Of a stretch of 64,000 nt of DNA, positions 10,385 to 16,068 are shown in pieces (the stretch's first letter is position 1; the number at the start of each line of letters is the position of its first letter). The DNA comes from Escherichia phage kaaroe. A program made the position numbers and the translations under genes. The notes under the pieces were generated by a model. That model was given only the letters and a program-made list of their open reading frames with translations, ran no database searches and had not been told where the DNA came from. The stretch lies in sequence record MN850574.1, one strand, 5' to 3'.

Positions 10385-10394
10385 GGTGATTATT

Positions 10395-10922
10395 ATGGAA
10401 TGGGAAGTTGGTAAAACTTACAAGATTGAATGCGAAGCGTCGAAAGCCGAACTGACTAAATTTTCGTCGTCTATTAACAGATGTATTGTTGACTTGTTGG
10501 CTGGTCGCCCGTTTAGGGTAGAAGACCTTGACGATGATGGTGATGTTAGAGAAATTACTATTATTGGTAGTGATTTCGACTCTATGACGTTAAAAGAATC
10601 CCCTATTGGTTGTTCTGGTGTGTGGTTTTGGTCGGGTGAGCGTCGTTTCTTTACCGAAGTTACTATTGAACCTAAGATTCCAGATTCAGAAGAAAAAGAA
10701 GAAGACCTAACTTTAGAACGCCTGGGTCTGCTTATGGAAGCCTACGACATTCAGTTGATCGATAAGATGGGGTTACATAATAGCATTGCCAAAATTACTA
10801 CCCTAGAAGGTATTAAGAGCGTACTGGATGGTATGCCTAGCCGGATCGGTGCTATCAGAGAATACAAACAAACGCGCGACCGTATGATCCAATTAGAATC
10901 ACGTATCAAAAATGAGAGATGA
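10395..10922 (+). CDS. hypothetical protein, paralog family B member 1
   Basis: N-terminal MEWEVGKTYK motif shared with the next three genes. Confidence 0.55.
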   Translation: MEWEVGKTYKIECEASKAELTKFSSSINRCIVDLLAGRPFRVEDLDDDGDVREITIIGSDFDSMTLKESPIGCSGVWFWSGERRFFTEVTIEPKIPDSEEKEEDLTLERLGLLMEAYDIQLIDKMGLHNSIAKITTLEGIKSVLDGMPSRIGAIREYKQTRDRMIQLESRIKNER

Positions 10923-10926
10923 TATT

Positions 10927-11391
10927 ATGAAATGGGAAGCTGGTAAGACCTATGCGTGGAAAGATGTAAAAGATGCAAACCAATTTTTTAAATGGTATGA
11001 TGTTGATTATTTGAAATATCTGCGATTACCGTTTAAAGTTGCGTCGGTTGATGCGAAAAAAGGATACGTGCGGTCTGTTTATCTTCATGATGGAACTTAT
11101 ATGAGTTCAACCGATGTAGGTCTATCTTGTTGGTTTCTGGATCATGACCGTAGCAGATTTGAAGAAATTATTATTCCAGAAGAATCTAAATTAATTGACC
11201 TTCTCAAATTGGCGATGGATAATTATAAAATTCGCTTTGAATGCAAATCACATGCGGCTATCGGTGCTAACGCCTTGCGTCATATCTCCAGTTTTGAAGA
11301 GTTGAAAGATTTTCTTGACAAAATGCCGGAAAGAGTGCAAGCTATACAGGAAGCTGAGAAAGCATTAAACGAACTTGATAAAATCGGTTAA
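10927..11391 (+). CDS. hypothetical protein, paralog family B member 2
   Basis: MKWEAGKTYAWKD N-terminus; C-terminal helical tail resembling other family B members. Confidence 0.55.
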   Translation: MKWEAGKTYAWKDVKDANQFFKWYDVDYLKYLRLPFKVASVDAKKGYVRSVYLHDGTYMSSTDVGLSCWFLDHDRSRFEEIIIPEESKLIDLLKLAMDNYKIRFECKSHAAIGANALRHISSFEELKDFLDKMPERVQAIQEAEKALNELDKIG

Positions 11392-11403
11392 GGGGAATAT
11401 ATT

Positions 11404-12228
11404 ATGAAATGGGAAATTGGTAAAACTTACACTTGGAAAGATGAAAACGCGAAAACTGAGTTTATTACTAACGGAGAAGGTGTTCTTTCTCCACTTAACA
11501 GCGATATCAGTGCAGCTATTGGTGACAAGCCATTTACCATCATCGAGATCGAGGGTAACGGTTGGATTGATGCAATAGAGCTAGACGGTGTTTATCATAC
11601 GGCGAAAACTGCTACAGGAAAAGACATTTGGACTGCAACATATTTCTTTAGTCCATTCGATAGAAAATTCTTTCGTGAAGTTGAAGAAGTTCCCCAGAAA
11701 TGGGAAGTTGGTAAAACTTATACTTGGAAAGATGCGAATGCTATGACCGACTTCTGTCATTATGCTGAAAACGTATCTAACCTTAATTATGTTATTGCAC
11801 GAGCAATAAATTATAGACCTTTTACTGTTAAAAATGTTAGTCCATGTGGGCAAGTTAATGTAATTGAAATTGATGGTAAAGACCATACTCTAATGAGTGC
11901 AACCGAAGATAGCGACCATAAAGGAACTAGCTGGTTTATTGATTCTGATAGAAAATTCTTTCGTGAAGTAGAAGAATTGGAAGTTATAACCACTGATTCT
12001 AAGATCGTTGGACAGTTGAAACGTCTGTTTAGTAGTCGTTATGGCCTGACAATGGTTAAATTTAGCGAAGCAAATGAAGGTAAAACCTTTGAACGTTTCG
12101 ATGATTTCATCGCAGCACTTGACAAGATGGACGAAATAATGCAAGATCGCCAGAAGATTAAAGACCTTCAAGAAGACATTAAACGTCGTGAAGTTGAATT
12201 TTTGATTGGTAAAGAGCGAGGTTGGTAA
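11404..12228 (+). CDS. hypothetical protein, paralog family B member 3 (two tandem modules)
   Basis: MKWEIGKTYTWKD and a second internal QKWEVGKTYTWKD; repeated DRKFFREVEE. Confidence 0.6.
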   Translation: MKWEIGKTYTWKDENAKTEFITNGEGVLSPLNSDISAAIGDKPFTIIEIEGNGWIDAIELDGVYHTAKTATGKDIWTATYFFSPFDRKFFREVEEVPQKWEVGKTYTWKDANAMTDFCHYAENVSNLNYVIARAINYRPFTVKNVSPCGQVNVIEIDGKDHTLMSATEDSDHKGTSWFIDSDRKFFREVEELEVITTDSKIVGQLKRLFSSRYGLTMVKFSEANEGKTFERFDDFIAALDKMDEIMQDRQKIKDLQEDIKRREVEFLIGKERGW

Positions 12229-12229
12229 T

Positions 12230-12706
12230 ATGTTTGTTGTTGGCATGACCTATCAGTGGAAAAACGAACAAGCGCGTAAAGCCTTTGCAACCAGTGATGC
12301 GAATCGTGTGATCTCCGAGTTTATCGGGGACCGTCAGTTTAAAGTCTTAGCTATTGATTCATCTACTATACCTGAATATGTTTCTGTGATTGAAATCGAT
12401 GGTAAGGCTTACCAGTGTCCAGACAATGAAAAGGTTTATCTTTATGCTTGTAATTGGTTTTCACCTACCGAAGATCAATATTTTAAAGTAGTATCAGCAG
12501 AACTATCATCCGAAGCAATGATGCAACAATTCTTCAATAACTACGAAGTTTCTGTGCGTCGCTATGGCGAAGAAGAAGTGTTTAAAATCGATGATTACAA
12601 TCAGTTTAAACGAGTATTCGCCACTAAGTTGCAGCGTGACTTTGAACGTGACCAACGGATCAAGGAACTGGAAGAAGAACTAGAAAGATTAAAGGCTGAG
12701 AAATGA
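12230..12706 (+). CDS. hypothetical protein, paralog family B member 4
   Basis: MFVVGMTYQWKNE N-terminus and coiled-coil C-terminus. Confidence 0.55.
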   Translation: MFVVGMTYQWKNEQARKAFATSDANRVISEFIGDRQFKVLAIDSSTIPEYVSVIEIDGKAYQCPDNEKVYLYACNWFSPTEDQYFKVVSAELSSEAMMQQFFNNYEVSVRRYGEEEVFKIDDYNQFKRVFATKLQRDFERDQRIKELEEELERLKAEK

Positions 12707-12972
12707 TCGAGATATACGGTATACCGAAAGAGGCTTATCATTGTTATGGTTGTATTAGTGCAATGAAGCTACTGGATGATCTGGGTATTCCGTATACACT
12801 TAAACCAGTATTCAAGCAGGTCGGGGTTGACATTATTCCCGACCGTGATATGATTGAAGAACTGGCGGGGAGGCTGAACTCAAAGAGCCTCCGGTTTGTA
12901 TACCCCCAGATATTCATTGACAACGAGCACATTGGAGGCTATAAAGAACTGAGGGCGATTTATGATTATTGA
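12703..12972 (+). CDS. nrdH: glutaredoxin-like protein (NrdH-like)
   Basis: CYGC redox motif and YPQIFIDNEHIGGYKEL; sits beside nrdG as in T4. Confidence 0.65.
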   Translation: MIEIYGIPKEAYHCYGCISAMKLLDDLGIPYTLKPVFKQVGVDIIPDRDMIEELAGRLNSKSLRFVYPQIFIDNEHIGGYKELRAIYDY

Positions 12973-13120
12973 GAATTTAGTTTCGGTATTCATTATTGCT
13001 TTATTTGCTATAATGGCTTTACCGTTGAAGAAGTGTAAACACTGTAACGGAACAGGATTGCGTGGTGATGGGTGTTGCGCTCATTGTCATGGATCTGGTA
13101 AAGTAAGTATCATTAAGTAA
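12962..13120 (+). CDS. small membrane-anchored peptide with DnaJ-type CxxCxGxG zinc finger (52 aa)
   Basis: Unlisted ORF; hydrophobic N-terminus NLVSVFIIALFAIMAL followed by CKHCNGTG..CCAHCHGSG. Confidence 0.3.
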   Translation: MIIENLVSVFIIALFAIMALPLKKCKHCNGTGLRGDGCCAHCHGSGKVSIIK

Positions 13121-13141
13121 TTCTTGAGTGAGGAATATATT

Positions 13142-13429
13142 ATGTTAGTACACAATGCAATCGCACACATGGTTTATTCTCGATTTGGGCGCATGGAAGA
13201 AATCAATATTACCGACGCAGATTTAGATCTGATGCAAGTCGAAGGCCAGACATATCTGAAAAATAACGGCGTGAATATCGGTAAAGCGCGTGTGCGTGAA
13301 TTGTTGGTTGAATATATTCTCTCTGAATTTGGCATTAGTGCTTTCGGTGTGAAAGAGATTGCACCTAAGCGCGAAATTTCTGATAAAATGATCAAGAAAT
13401 GCCAGAAAGAACGACGTAAGGGTTTCTAA
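13142..13429 (+). CDS. hypothetical protein
   Basis: GAGTGAGGAATATATTATG start context. Confidence 0.5.
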   Translation: MLVHNAIAHMVYSRFGRMEEINITDADLDLMQVEGQTYLKNNGVNIGKARVRELLVEYILSEFGISAFGVKEIAPKREISDKMIKKCQKERRKGF

Positions 13430-14898
13430 TGAAGATTGAAACATTAATCGCATTGCCAGCGGCGGGGAAAACTGATGCTATACTTTCCCACGTCCTAGAG
13501 ACAAAAGAAAAAGCGGTTATTGCTTCGCCATCTCGTGTTTTAAGTGAACAATCTTACAATAAGTTTAAAAGAATGGGCGGTCGTGCTGTCTTGATTGATA
13601 GCACAAGACTAAGAAGCCTTAAGACAGTGCAAGCGTCGATAATGCAATCAGTTAAAGATGGTGCTGATGTGATATTCATTACACATACAGCGTTATCTAA
13701 TATGGAACGTTCAAAAATGTTTGGTGATTATGCTCTTTACATTGATGAAGTTCCTCAACTGGTTGAATTTAATGAGTATCCGTTTAAGTCTAATCTTGAA
13801 CTTATCACGAAGCATTGCGAACCAATCGCCGACGAATCGGAATGCCTACAGAACTTAGTTCTAAAAGACTCTGAGAAGGCCGCTATCAAAGAAAAGATAG
13901 AAAGTGCGAAGGATGGTACTGATATGATCGATTCTTCTCTTAGAGGGCTTTATGAGGCGTTATTAGAGAAGAAAATCAACGTTATGGTAAAACATAACGA
14001 AGGACACCGGAAGAATGGGTCGAAAATTGTTTTCTTGAACGATAACAAACACGGTACGTGGGGAGACTTTAAAAAGGTTACGATAGCATGTGCAAATCTC
14101 TTTGATACATATAGTGGGAAGTATCTACGATACTATGCAAATTGCGATTTTGTTCCGAGTGCGCTAGAATCCAGACTATATTTCAAAGAGTATAAAAATA
14201 CAGATAGAGTTAATATCATCCTTATGACGGACTCTGAACGATGGTCGCGTCACCAGTCAGAAACAAACAATACCTTTGAACGTCTTGTTGATATGGTTAA
14301 AAATGAATGTGGCGATGACTTCATTTATACCGTGAATCGGGACCGTGAAGCGTGTACAAATGGTATTGGTGAGCGGATACCTTACGGGTCTTATGGTCTT
14401 AACTCTTACATTCATCATAAAAATGTTGCTGTGATGTTCAGCTTTAACCCTCAACGATGGGAGATTGATATTTTAAAAGGTCTTGCTAATAGTTGTGATC
14501 TCCCGACAAACGAGTTTTTGAAAGCGCGTCATGTGTCTGATTATCTGGAACCAGCATTTCAATTATGTTTGCGTTGTAACCTGAGAGACAACGAGAGCAA
14601 GGAGAATGTTAATCTATATGTTCCTGATTGGGCGTTGGTGGATTATCTAAAAACGTTTCTGCCTAATGCCAATGTAATAACAGATCGAATGATTCCGCTA
14701 GAATGTGGTGAACGTAAAGGGCGAAAATCATTTAAAAAGATGTTCGACTTTAACGAGCAAGAGAATGCAAGATTTAACGGATTTAAGTACCGCATGAAGA
14801 AAAAAGGAAAAACTCTTGATCCGTCTGACGGCGAATCTGTAGAGATGGTTAGAGTGTGGATAACTAAGCAAAGAAAGTATAATGGTAATGGGGAATAG
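13429..14898 (+). CDS. putative P-loop NTPase/helicase-like protein
   Basis: Walker A-like LPAAGKTD near N-terminus and Walker B-like LYIDEVP; no T4 counterpart recognised. Confidence 0.45.
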   Translation: MKIETLIALPAAGKTDAILSHVLETKEKAVIASPSRVLSEQSYNKFKRMGGRAVLIDSTRLRSLKTVQASIMQSVKDGADVIFITHTALSNMERSKMFGDYALYIDEVPQLVEFNEYPFKSNLELITKHCEPIADESECLQNLVLKDSEKAAIKEKIESAKDGTDMIDSSLRGLYEALLEKKINVMVKHNEGHRKNGSKIVFLNDNKHGTWGDFKKVTIACANLFDTYSGKYLRYYANCDFVPSALESRLYFKEYKNTDRVNIILMTDSERWSRHQSETNNTFERLVDMVKNECGDDFIYTVNRDREACTNGIGERIPYGSYGLNSYIHHKNVAVMFSFNPQRWEIDILKGLANSCDLPTNEFLKARHVSDYLEPAFQLCLRCNLRDNESKENVNLYVPDWALVDYLKTFLPNANVITDRMIPLECGERKGRKSFKKMFDFNEQENARFNGFKYRMKKKGKTLDPSDGESVEMVRVWITKQRKYNGNGE

Positions 14899-14938: not shown

Positions 14939-15472
14939 GTGTCTGATTATGTAAACAATAAAGAGCTTTACGAAGAAATTTGCCGTTGGAAACAACAAAT
15001 TGCAGCAGAAGGTCGGCAAGTTCCAATGAGCGATCAAATCGGCCTAGCAATTATGCAAATCTCTAAAAATCTATCACGTCGTTTTAACTTTTCTGGTTAT
15101 AGTCAAACGTGGCGCGAAGAAATGATCGACGACGGAATCGAAGCGGCGGTCAAGGGTTTGATTAATTTTGACGAGACAAAGTATAAAAATCCTCATGCTT
15201 ACATCACGCAAGCGTGCTTTAATGCTTTTGTACAGCGCATTAAAAAAGAGAGAACAGCGACAGCCGCAAAATACAAATATTTTGTGCATCATGTATATGA
15301 CGAACGCGACGCTGATATGTGCCAGATTGCTGATGAGGCATTCATACAGGACATTTACGATAAAATCAACAACTACGAGGAATCGGTCAATAAACCGAAA
15401 GCGCCAAAGGTTGAAGATGTATTGACCGAGGAATTGCCTAGCTTGGACCAATTTTATGAGATTGAAAATTAA
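14939..15472 (+). CDS. 55: late-transcription sigma factor gp55
   Basis: [49 protein letters not shown] closely matches recalled T4 gp55; GTG start. Confidence 0.9.
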
Positions 15473-15978: not shown

Positions 15979-16000
15979 TGGCTTTATAGGGGAGACTCTG

Positions 16001-16026
16001 AAAGGGGTTTCCCTTTTTATTTTTCT
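16001..16026 (+). terminator. putative intrinsic terminator
   Basis: AAAGGGgtttCCCTTT followed by T-rich run. Confidence 0.45.
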
Positions 16027-16068
16027 GTGATATAGTGAGAGCATCGAAAACGAAGAGAGGAAGAGACT

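Follow-up and report, generated by a model that had tools for sequence, protein, structure and literature searches.

Phage T4 is the reference for phage DNA replication, and its gp41, Dda and UvsW are textbook helicases. T4-like phages already own gp41/gp61/gp59, Dda and UvsW, and in this phage group UvsW (SF2) and Dda (SF1B) serve as accessory DNA helicases. Known primase-helicase pairs use, to our knowledge, SF3, SF4 or MCM-type helicases. The XPD/Rad3/DinG family consists of 5'-to-3' SF2 enzymes with an Fe-S domain, which XPD and Rad3 need for coupling ATP hydrolysis to unwinding, and the Fe-S-less DinG of S. aureus shows no DNA unwinding (PMC10450177). CasDinG of type IV-A CRISPR systems (PDB 8s35_M, 8e2w_A) partners with the CRISPR effector complex and carries an N-terminal domain and a vestigial four-helix Fe-S domain. 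It unwinds despite having only this vestige, also unwinds RNA/DNA hybrids, and requires for ssDNA binding and unwinding an arch (residues 352-467) situated after its Walker B residues D337/E338 (PMC10450177).

SF2-type motors have also been described in association with primases. Kazlauskas et al. 2018 reported primase-fused domains with remote SF2 similarity, whose nearest homologues lay in 'some T4-like phages' (pVOG1685/9714). The domains were predicted to form a new family of viral and plasmid helicases, for which neither fold nor function was given (PMC5862659). This 'VOG(1685/9714)-like helicase' is fused to All3500-family AEP primases and has homologues in T4-like and SPbeta phages (PMC5862659). 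IEE, the IS-excision enhancer of E. coli O157, joins an AEP primase-polymerase to an SF2 motor on a mobile element and is a DNA-dependent ATPase for which unwinding was not detected (PMC9943667). IEE is the sole biochemically studied primase-SF2 fusion that we found in the literature.

Here, we describe a 489-aa protein encoded in a 64,000-nt stretch of DNA (the window) from Escherichia phage kaaroe (MN850574.1). We propose, at a probability of roughly 65%, that it is an active, ATP-driven SF2 DNA motor (helicase or translocase) of XPD/DinG-like architecture, belonging to the PHROG 2467 family.

A conserved gene upstream of gene 55

The preliminary description, made from the sequence alone, had singled out the 489-aa ORF, which we confirmed as a coding sequence with an ATG start at 13429..14898 on the + strand, stop codon included. 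Judged by its conservation it is certainly a real gene, since there are 42 full-length homologues (31-99% identity), whose alignment has 54 invariant columns distributed along its entire length, and a full-length match to PHROG 2467 (phrog_2467; E 2.9e-175, residues 1-489 against profile positions 8-502 of 502). The protein is 100% identical to EpJSE_00045 of phage JSE and 99.8% identical to RB49ORF044c, the GC content of the gene is like that of its neighbours, and every matching record among the matches listed annotates it as 'hypothetical'. An NCBIfam search with the protein gave nothing usable, and PDB searches by sequence (phmmer) and by profile returned no matches.

By tblastn the gene was found in 243 of 50,697 phage records; for scale, T4 Dda matches 2185. 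The absence of any match between 60% and 95% identity in that search implies that there was no Tequatrovirus match. Seven of the eight Straboviridae carriers examined have the gene directly upstream of gene 55, which is its right-hand neighbour also in Cronus, S13, CC2, 44RR and AS-gz; in RB16, gene 34 follows instead. Carriers with the fixed locus span at least six Straboviridae genera, and divergence of the protein broadly parallels that of the neighbouring core gp55. Replacement of Dda by this gene was considered and rejected, as Dda homologues occur in the carriers Phi1, CC2 and Aes012 and in one Klebsiella carrier.

The gene had been placed between nrdH and gene 55, which is accurate on one side only. 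Gene 55, encoding the late sigma factor (14939..15472, +), is the conserved downstream neighbour after a gap of 41 nt, but nrdH is not adjacent, being separated from the gene by ORFs for a 52-aa zinc-ribbon protein (12962..13120) and a gp55.2 homologue (13124..13429, +; DUF7570, E 9e-29). Nor is the corresponding T4 interval small, as had been stated: it measures 1647 bp and holds six small ORFs (55.1 to 55.6), compared with 1966 bp here. The suspicion that T4 has no counterpart was well founded, as the T4 slot is taken by the unrelated 87-aa gp55.1; the hhalign probability of 0.4% also led us to reject gp55.1 as a remnant of the 489-aa gene. Small accessory ORFs are abundant around the locus.

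The helicase ATG overlaps the gp55.2 stop codon (TAATG, 13427-13431), and this overlap suggests co-transcription and translational coupling of the two genes. gp55.2 also adjoins the helicase gene in RB16, Cronobacter S13 and Aeromonas CC2. It is not upstream of it in Cronus, 44RR and AS-gz, and T4 has 55.2 without the helicase, so gp55.2 was rejected as an obligatory partner. The T4 protein gp55.2, whose gene is transcribed early, inhibits topoisomerase I of E. coli and increases the copy number of R-loop-dependent plasmids (PMC4396842). The helicase gene may likewise be expressed early; no T4 late promoter motif was found on the + strand across the whole window.

Two RecA-like lobes and an arch-like insert

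In the AlphaFold2 model of the protein (pLDDT 87.7, pTM 0.75) and in the alignment we found two tandem RecA-like lobes together with the motif VI glutamine and arginine residues that mark SF2. Of the functions previously offered, that of a helicase is supported: the whole model has the two-RecA-lobe SF2 fold, closest to XPD/DinG, and the ATPase signature residues are conserved. The Walker A-like LPAAGKTD (residues 9-16) and Walker B-like LYIDEVP (residues 103-109) are present as described, whereas the remainder, about 350 aa in which no motifs had been recognised, contains the rest of the helicase core, namely A222-N223, G323-x-N325, N340-P341 and Q378-x3-R382-x3-R386.

The first part of lobe 1 (residues 1-109; 13429..13755, +), with an approximate boundary based on Pfam, secondary structure and conservation, holds Walker A, a motif Ia-like S33..L38..Q41, T85-H86 and Walker B. 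It overlaps the Pfam DEAD match (PF00270; residues 11-130, 27.3 bits against a cut-off of 26), which, with AAA_34 and two chance matches, was all that a Pfam scan at E<=1 returned. In Walker A, or motif I (residues 10-16, PAAGKTD; 13456..13476, +), P10, G13, K14 and T15 do not vary among the 42 aligned homologues, and among the sequences covering these columns in an alignment of 243 proteins the glycine is kept in 184/186, the lysine in 186/186 and a threonine or serine in 186/186. Walker B, or motif II (13735..13755, +), has D106 and E107 in all 230 of 230 aligned family members, and both are invariant in the 42 homologues.

Directly after Walker B, an arch-like alpha/beta insert occupies approximately residues 110-215 (13756..14073, +), with modelled strands at 112-119, 186-189 and 198-205 and helices at 147-162, 166-170 and 172-179. 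The chain then returns to lobe 1 (approximately residues 216-255; 14074..14193, +) through a strand (216-221) and the motif III-like V-T-I-A-C-A222-N223, in which A222 occurs in 215/233 and N223 in 171/233 aligned sequences. Lobe 2 (approximately residues 256-420; 14194..14688, +), delimited by conservation, the model and hhalign, holds W272-S273, N303, a motif V-like G323-L-N325, N340-P341, motif VI and V398-P-D400. G323 and N325 are found in every sequence covering these columns of the 243-protein alignment, and in the motif VI-like segment (residues 378-386, QLCLRCNLR; 14560..14586, +) Q378, R382 and R386 are each present in 240/240 aligned family members, making the two arginines candidate arginine fingers.

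The protein ends in a basic three-helix tail (residues 421-489; 14689..14895, +) specific to the T4-like subfamily, with helices at 435-438, 443-458 and 468-486 following a low-confidence linker (426-431) in the AlphaFold2 model. E445 and W477 of this tail are invariant in the 42 homologues, and the one likeness found for it, to an IclR HTH, is non-significant (E 0.72).

Comparison with XPD, DinG and other helicases

The closest structures are those of DinG, CasDinG and XPD, which align over 312-368 residues compared with at most 266 for other SF2 families; the overall fold, including the accessory region of lobe 1, is nearest to that of XPD/Rad3/DinG enzymes (PDB 3crv, 2vl7, 5fmf_Y, 6fwr, 9kqh). 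DEAD-box structures align over one lobe only (130-170 residues). With UvsW the protein shares the generic SF2 lobes, and there is no full-length alignment to it, the match being restricted to one lobe, for which reason a divergent UvsW was rejected. UvsW and D10, rather than the 489-aa gene, are also the subject of a paper on retron-trigger helicases.

Within this likeness, several differences set the phage protein apart. It has no Fe-S domain and no vestigial helical bundle before motif II, since there is too little room ahead of Walker B and no conserved set of four cysteines: K14 and D106 are about 92 residues apart, across the family the stretch between Walker A and Walker B has a median length of 97 residues (range 85-113) and a median cysteine count of one, and C130 and C380 are the only invariant cysteines in the 42-homologue alignment. 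The Walker B-to-motif III distance, by contrast to this short spacing, has a family median of 114 residues, and the insert of about 105 aa resembles the CasDinG arch in position and length, by which the two were compared, both lying after Walker B. Neither of the extra domains of CasDinG is present, nor is there a CRISPR context. The Pfam scan at E<=1 gave no match to the XPD/DinG profiles DEAD_2 and Helicase_C_2 or to Helicase_C, the motif VI spacing is Q-x3-R-x3-R, and the protein, with its 489 aa, falls well short of XPD/DinG in size. By analogy with XPD and DinG, which have it, a 5'-to-3' polarity may be expected; as the Fe-S domain is needed for unwinding in XPD/Rad3, a motor without one may translocate or remodel instead.

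Relatives fused to primase-like domains

An exhaustive profile search yielded 1329 cluster representatives at E<=1e-3. Among the best 150 of these, 71 share a single homologous domain at their C-terminus and 72 stand alone, so that in about half of the relatives the position of the tail is taken by a linker and a primase-like domain. The phage family aligns with the fused family of about 800 aa at an hhalign probability of 100% (E 4e-48) over residues 2-419, and the tail falls outside this common region. The C-terminal domain of the fused relatives matches DNA-primase PHROGs, with phrog_9765 hit by 9/14 members (best E 2e-12), followed by phrog_2135, phrog_17236 and the 'replicative helicase-primase' phrog_3228, and it carries hhhDh[D/E] in 83/106 sequences together with an invariant downstream D. 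Profile searches of Pfam and the PDB gave no match for this domain, the PHROG scan being the informative one, and no separate primase-like gene was found in the 64,000-nt window. At two integrative-element loci (L012 and L015) the order is integrase, AlpA or HTH_17 gene, helicase(-primase). In integrative mobile elements, this family seems to provide primase-like domains with an SF2-type partner.

On circumstantial grounds, namely agreement with a verbal description, the 489-aa family may be equated with the pVOG1685-like family of Kazlauskas et al. 2018. Most fusions found here are reversed relative to the pVOG1685/9714 fusions, the helicase coming first and a primase-like domain following at the C-terminus. 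IEE has the AEP domain before the helicase, and its helicase has been aligned to RadD (PMC9943667). The distance from Walker A to the arginine finger is shorter in IEE (K451 to R735, 284 residues) than here (about 370), and IEE therefore probably lacks an arch-like insert; its helicase domain seems to belong to another SF2 lineage.

Proposed role and alternatives

The protein, built from two RecA-like lobes and an arch-like insert of about 105 residues after Walker B, without an Fe-S domain, belongs to a large family of predicted helicases that phages share with integrative mobile elements (PHROG 2467 and its relatives). Some primase-fused members lie in integrative elements at the replication slot near the integrase/excisionase genes, and the T4-like phages carry the stand-alone form with a short basic helical tail. 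We infer a DNA substrate and a role in replication: the protein would probably be made before replication, together with gp55.2, and would most likely assist the replication of phage DNA as an accessory helicase, whether in initiation, in support of priming, in restart, or in the removal of R-loops or D-loops. Taken by itself, a specific replication role is a tentative proposal, to which we give somewhat less than an even chance. Since T4-like phages already possess helicases and T4 fares well without the gene, any such role would be accessory.

If the protein is such a motor, 243 phage records from several Straboviridae genera hold a further conserved predicted helicase that is missing in T4 and annotated 'hypothetical' among the matches listed, and a candidate replication or repair player is added to T4 relatives, several of which are used for therapy. 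Being very compact and free of an Fe-S domain, this XPD/DinG-shaped motor would serve as a useful natural case for judging how far unwinding depends on the Fe-S domain. The present practical gain is modest and consists of better annotation.

Several other readings draw on the same observations. A DNA-dependent ATPase that does not unwind, and works as a translocase, protein-displacing motor or DNA-synapsis factor in the manner of IEE or S. aureus DinG, would fit the absence of the Fe-S domain that XPD/Rad3 need for coupling (PMC10450177) and has a precedent in IEE, an AEP-SF2 fusion with ATPase activity and no unwinding (PMC9943667). We consider it rather unlikely, because an arch-like insert of the kind that CasDinG needs for ssDNA binding and unwinding is kept, CasDinG unwinds with a merely vestigial Fe-S domain, and the helicase domain of IEE, aligned to RadD and with 284 residues between Walker A lysine and arginine finger against about 370 here, seems to be of another SF2 lineage. 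The structural ranking, headed by DinG, CasDinG and XPD, could point to a DinG-like accessory helicase for R-loops, D-loops or transcription conflicts that clears RNA:DNA hybrids or RNA polymerase ahead of phage forks and balances the promotion of R-loops by gp55.2. CasDinG unwinds RNA/DNA hybrids (PMC10450177), E. coli DinG is reported to promote replication across transcription units (PMC2770101), and the coupled gp55.2 gene encodes a relative of a known topoisomerase I inhibitor. This reading is nevertheless pure analogy and seems unlikely to us, as linkage with gp55.2 is not universal and the primase fusions of relatives indicate work at forks or in initiation over hybrid removal. In T4, moreover, R-loops are already unwound by UvsW.

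Initiation itself could be the task of the protein if its core and basic tail bound and melted an origin like herpesvirus UL9, or loaded at R-loops stabilised by gp55.2, which would make it a dedicated initiator of non-T-even T4-like phages, missing in T4. Relatives are found where integrative elements keep their replication initiator, and relatives carry fusions to primase-like domains. The basic C-terminal tail is made of helices and has E445 and W477 invariant, UL9 is reported as the origin-binding protein to which the sister group pVOG9714 comes closest (Kazlauskas et al. 2018, PMC5862659), and the T4 homologue of the coupled gp55.2 inhibits topoisomerase I and boosts R-loop-dependent plasmids (PMC4396842). 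Yet the Pfam scan gave no Herpes_ori_bp match (PF02399) at E<=1 and UL9 was not among the top 50 BFVD matches, on which grounds a UL9 relationship was rejected; the HTH likeness of the tail is non-significant (E 0.72), and gp55.2 is not adjacent in Cronus, 44RR and AS-gz and is kept by T4 without the helicase, all of which makes an origin-opening initiator improbable. We are more doubtful about a version in which the protein descends from an ancestral helicase-primase module, of which only the helicase half has survived, and serves with gp55.2 as a dedicated origin- or R-loop-loading initiator that T4 lost. It would then be an XPD-shaped monomer without Fe-S that moves 5'-to-3' and binds DNA with a small tail at its C-terminus, and T4, having lost the gene, would have been left with RNA-polymerase R-loops and recombination alone.

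Two further suggestions of the preliminary description, a nuclease-associated ATPase and an anti-defence factor, fared poorly. For the former, no nuclease domain or nuclease neighbour was found, and the partner that recurs among relatives is primase-like. An anti-defence (or defence-related) factor, for example a motor stripping or decoying host immune nucleases, would suit a gene that the T4 lineage manages without, in a region rich in small accessory ORFs, but we found no positive evidence for it and regard it as very unlikely: PADLOC gave no real match (its one hit, at chance level with 13.6 bits and E 0.009, falls on 60 residues of a DRT model that is unrelated), 7/8 carriers examined have the gene at a fixed locus with divergence broadly following that of gene 55, unlike typical fast-turnover anti-defence genes, and the partner domain in relatives is neither nuclease nor sensor. 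Hardly credible is a DEAD-box-type RNA helicase acting on phage or host mRNA. DEAD (PF00270) is the only Pfam family above its cut-off (27.3 against 26 bits), but that match covers the generic N lobe alone with no Helicase_C (PF00271) match, DEAD-box structures align over one lobe while XPD/DinG align over 312-368 residues, motif II reads DEVP and motif VI Q-x3-R-x3-R, not HRIGRxGR, and relatives are fused to primase-like domains.

Further arrangements within the family

Some relatives of this putative XPD/DinG-like motor are organised differently. At L012 and L013, helicase and primase are apparently split into separate genes. L013 is broken into three frames, so both splits are possibly frameshifts or assembly errors, and we discounted them as evidence for stand-alone partners. 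P0130 is a family member (PHROG 2467, E 6e-53) with an extra N-terminal region of 370 aa; all phage matches in a search with it, among the matches listed, were the T4-like-phage copies of the 489-aa gene. The N-terminal extension matched no PHROG or Pfam family and looks primase-like by eye, with a DFDED motif and a CHC2-like zinc motif. The 'bll5242-like' AEP family of Bradyrhizobium may correspond to the helicase-primase fusions found here.

Locus and gene neighbourhood

The 489-residue product of the ORF at 13429-14898 (+, ATG start) lies where the preliminary description placed it, and its Walker-like motifs were also read correctly (LPAAGKTD, residues 9-16; LYIDEVP, residues 103-109). The protein is shared, at 100% identity, with Escherichia phage JSE (EpJSE_00045) and, at 99.8%, with RB49 (RB49ORF044c; genus Krischvirus, Straboviridae), and all records listed for it annotate it as hypothetical. 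Full-length homologues retrieved by a word-indexed search numbered 42 (31-99% identity), and their alignment contains 54 invariant columns from residue 10 to residue 477. PHROG 2467 ("unknown function") is matched end to end (E 3e-175); on sequence evidence, the ORF is a real gene. Its GC content agrees with that of the neighbouring genes.

The gene falls within the nrdH-to-55 interval but does not adjoin nrdH, from which it is separated by a zinc-ribbon ORF of 52 aa and by the gene for a T4 gp55.2 homologue (DUF7570, E 9e-29). The stop codon of the latter overlaps the helicase start as TAATG, suggesting that the two are translated together, and 41 nt separate the helicase gene from gene 55, encoding the late sigma factor, downstream. 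A T4 counterpart is indeed absent, the slot between 55 and 55.2 being occupied there by the unrelated gp55.1 (87 aa; hhalign probability 0.4%). The interval had also been described as small in T4, yet it spans 1647 bp with six small ORFs, compared to 1966 bp in the window; it differs in content, not in size. The 52-aa ORF (12962-13120, +) encodes a hydrophobic helix at the N terminus and then two CxxCxGxG-type motifs (KCKHCNGTG...CAHCHGSG), a DnaJ-like zinc ribbon with weak, sub-threshold Pfam matches.

The nrdD-to-47 block runs on a single strand throughout. The T4 late promoter motif TATAAATA does not occur on the helicase strand anywhere in the 64-kb window, and only twice in the whole 64 kb, both times on the minus strand (56735, 61846; 5.7 expected by chance), a scarcity that makes the block around the helicase gene look purely early or middle. 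In T4, 55.2 is an early transcript (PMC4396842).

Predicted fold and conserved motifs

The sole Pfam match was to a generic DEAD N-lobe model (residues 11-130; 27.3 bits against a cut-off of 26), and searches of NCBIfam, PADLOC and PDB sequences with the window protein returned nothing meaningful. AlphaFold2 gave a confident model from the 42-sequence alignment (mean pLDDT 87.7, pTM 0.75). In an alignment of 243 relatives to the family profile, every sequence covering the respective columns (186 to 240) retained the lysine of Walker A, D106-E107 of Walker B, G323-x-N325 and Q378-x3-R382-x3-R386; T15 (T or S), A222-N223 at the motif III position, N303, N340-P341 and V398-P-D400 were nearly invariant. 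Such conservation of signature residues argues for strong selection on the ATPase machinery and makes an active motor very probable. The suggestion of a helicase is thus supported and sharpened by the two-lobe fold class and invariant ATPase motifs, whereas the alternatives offered with it, a nuclease-associated ATPase or an anti-defence factor, found no support, an anti-defence role being improbable.

In the model, an insert of ~105 residues (110-215), comprising beta strands and three helices, separates Walker B from the motif III strand (family median distance 114 residues). It sits in the same place as the arch domain of XPD, DinG and CasDinG, the DinG helicase of type IV-A CRISPR, whose arch (residues 352-467) directly follows Walker B D337/E338 (PMC10450177). 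XPD/DinG structural matches align ~100 residues more than other SF2 families do, in keeping with an arch at this position, and the insert is likely, but unproven, to be its equivalent. In contrast, the Fe-S domain (or vestigial bundle) that normally precedes Walker B in XPD/DinG is missing: K14 and D106 are only about 91 residues apart (family median 97, maximum 113, with a median of one cysteine), and C130 and C380 are the only invariant cysteines among the 42 homologues. As the protein lacks this defining feature and has no match to the family at the level of sequence profiles, we do not file the protein under XPD/DinG, although the predicted architecture resembles that family.

Distribution and descent in T4-like phages

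The gene was found by tblastn in 243 phage records (Aeromonas 77, Escherichia 53, Cronobacter 19, Enterobacter 18, Citrobacter 12, and others), with no matches between 60% and 95% identity. For comparison, T4 Dda matched 2185 records, 712 from Escherichia, which argues that the T-even group proper lacks the helicase gene. Gene 55 is its immediate downstream neighbour in JSE, RB49, Erwinia phage Cronus, Cronobacter phage S13 and Aeromonas phages CC2, 44RR and AS-gz, with RB16, where gene 34 follows, as an exception. Identities to the window for helicase and gp55, respectively, are 42% and 63% in Cronus, 39% and 46% in S13, 38% and 52% in 44RR, 37% and 50% in AS-gz, and 35% and 34% in CC2; as both proteins share their closest and most distant carrier, the pattern fits vertical inheritance of the helicase together with gene 55. 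The window gp55 is 61% identical to that of T4, about as close as to that of Cronus, which is classified in Tevenvirinae, and, most simply read, these sequences would point to an ancient gene of Straboviridae that has disappeared from the T4 lineage.

A gp55.2/DUF7570 homologue precedes the helicase gene in the window (13124-13429, +), RB16, S13 and CC2. The upstream gene of AS-gz and 44RR encodes a different protein of 168-191 aa (L003:2929-3504, L011:998-1504), named "DprA-like DNA recombination-mediator" in one record and without a Pfam match.

Wider family and primase-like fusions

When 1.84 billion cluster representatives were searched exhaustively with the profile, 1329 proteins scored E<=1e-3, of which 765 reached E<=1e-10. 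Among the best 150 of the 1329, 72 are stand-alone (430-600 aa) and 71 are extended by 250-400 aa at the C terminus, the remainder being one protein with an N-terminal extension and six fragments. The C-terminal extensions all belong to one family, which Pfam and PDB profile searches did not recognize, and fourteen diverse examples matched PHROGs annotated as DNA primase: phrog_9765 (9 of 14, best E 2e-12), phrog_2135 and phrog_17236, together with phrog_3228 ("replicative helicase-primase") and the N-terminal part of phrog_256. Of 106 sequences of the domain, 83 show hhhDh[D/E], and an aspartate further downstream is invariant; according to the summary in PMC5862659, these motifs are the signature of archaeo-eukaryotic primases. 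Profile-profile comparison showed residues 2-419 to be common to the phage and fused families (probability 100%, E 4e-48); the phage protein ends in 70 residues peculiar to its own subfamily.

Rare relatives have extra N-terminal regions. That of P0130 (residues 1-365) combines DFDED and CHC2-like zinc motifs, resembling the "Prim+zf-CHC2+helicase" architecture of Kazlauskas et al. 2018, and matched no Pfam or PHROG model; P0150 (1266 aa) is extended on both sides, its C-terminal extension matching a DNA primase PHROG. In two metagenomic contigs (L012:7914-10350, L013:7932-10425) helicase and primase-like domain lie in different frames, the L013 primase part being split over three; these could be frameshifts, decay or assembly errors and not truly separate genes.

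Kazlauskas et al. [quoted passage not shown] Given that P0130, with its extra 370-aa N-terminal region, matches PHROG 2467 and, among the phage records listed, only the window-type helicase gene of T4-like phages, the family was very probably flagged there already, without fold assignment or function. We found no experimental work on it in the literature, and regard it as a well-defined, uncharacterized helicase family, not a categorically new one.

Fused relatives also occur in bacterial chromosomes, e.g., Bradyrhizobium. Two loci (L012, L015) show the order integrase, small AlpA or HTH_17 gene, fused relative; in many integrative elements, replication genes follow an integrase and a small AlpA/HTH gene. 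A third locus has a resolvase, a RepA-like AAA_25 ATPase and a transposase. Foldseek against viral models found full-length relatives in large phages of no relation, Agrobacterium Atu_ph07, Ralstonia phiRSL1, Fusobacterium Fnu1 and Pseudoalteromonas H101. The helicase-primase integrative elements L015:12759-22445 and L006:12669-22319 also hold defence-like or DNA-repair cargo, namely PLDc_2 and Mrr_cat nucleases, ADP-ribosylglycohydrolase proteins, an ATP-dependent DNA ligase, an ORC/CDC6-like ATPase and DUF6641.

Proposed function

We propose that the window protein is an ATP-driven DNA helicase or translocase, which, by analogy with other XPD/DinG-type motors, would be monomeric and move 5' to 3' along single-stranded DNA. 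This is the lagging-strand polarity required of a primase-coupled helicase in agreement with the fusion of relatives to primase-like domains. The protein may serve T4-like phages as an accessory replication helicase, with origin or R-loop opening, restart, and clearing of hybrids and proteins ahead of forks as candidate roles among which we do not choose. T4 gp55.2 is an inhibitor of topoisomerase I that promotes plasmid replication dependent on R-loops (PMC4396842); a functional link to the helicase is suggestive, though their adjacency is not universal. With no Fe-S domain, the protein may act purely as a translocase, by analogy with the Fe-S-less S. aureus DinG, which does not unwind (PMC10450177), and likewise the SF2 domain of the IS-excision enhancer IEE (PMC9943667).

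Other features of the window

The interval from nrdG to nrdH contains four paralogous genes in tandem (10386-12706, +; RB49ORF048c to 051c), none of which matches a Pfam family. Their ORFs (10386-10922, 10912-11391, 11404-12228 and 12206-12706, all +) share an N-terminal domain (WExGKTYxWK...RPFxV...IEIDG...WF..DRxFFxEV; 22-29% identity), present twice in the third gene. RB49 carries an HNH/AP2 homing-endonuclease-like ORF (RB49ORF040c, L002:6641-7195) between an a-gt.4 homologue and gene 47, which is absent from JSE (L001) and the window (~15980-16068); the corresponding spot in the window holds a strong terminator-like hairpin (15988-16015) with a 12 bp stem followed by a T-run.
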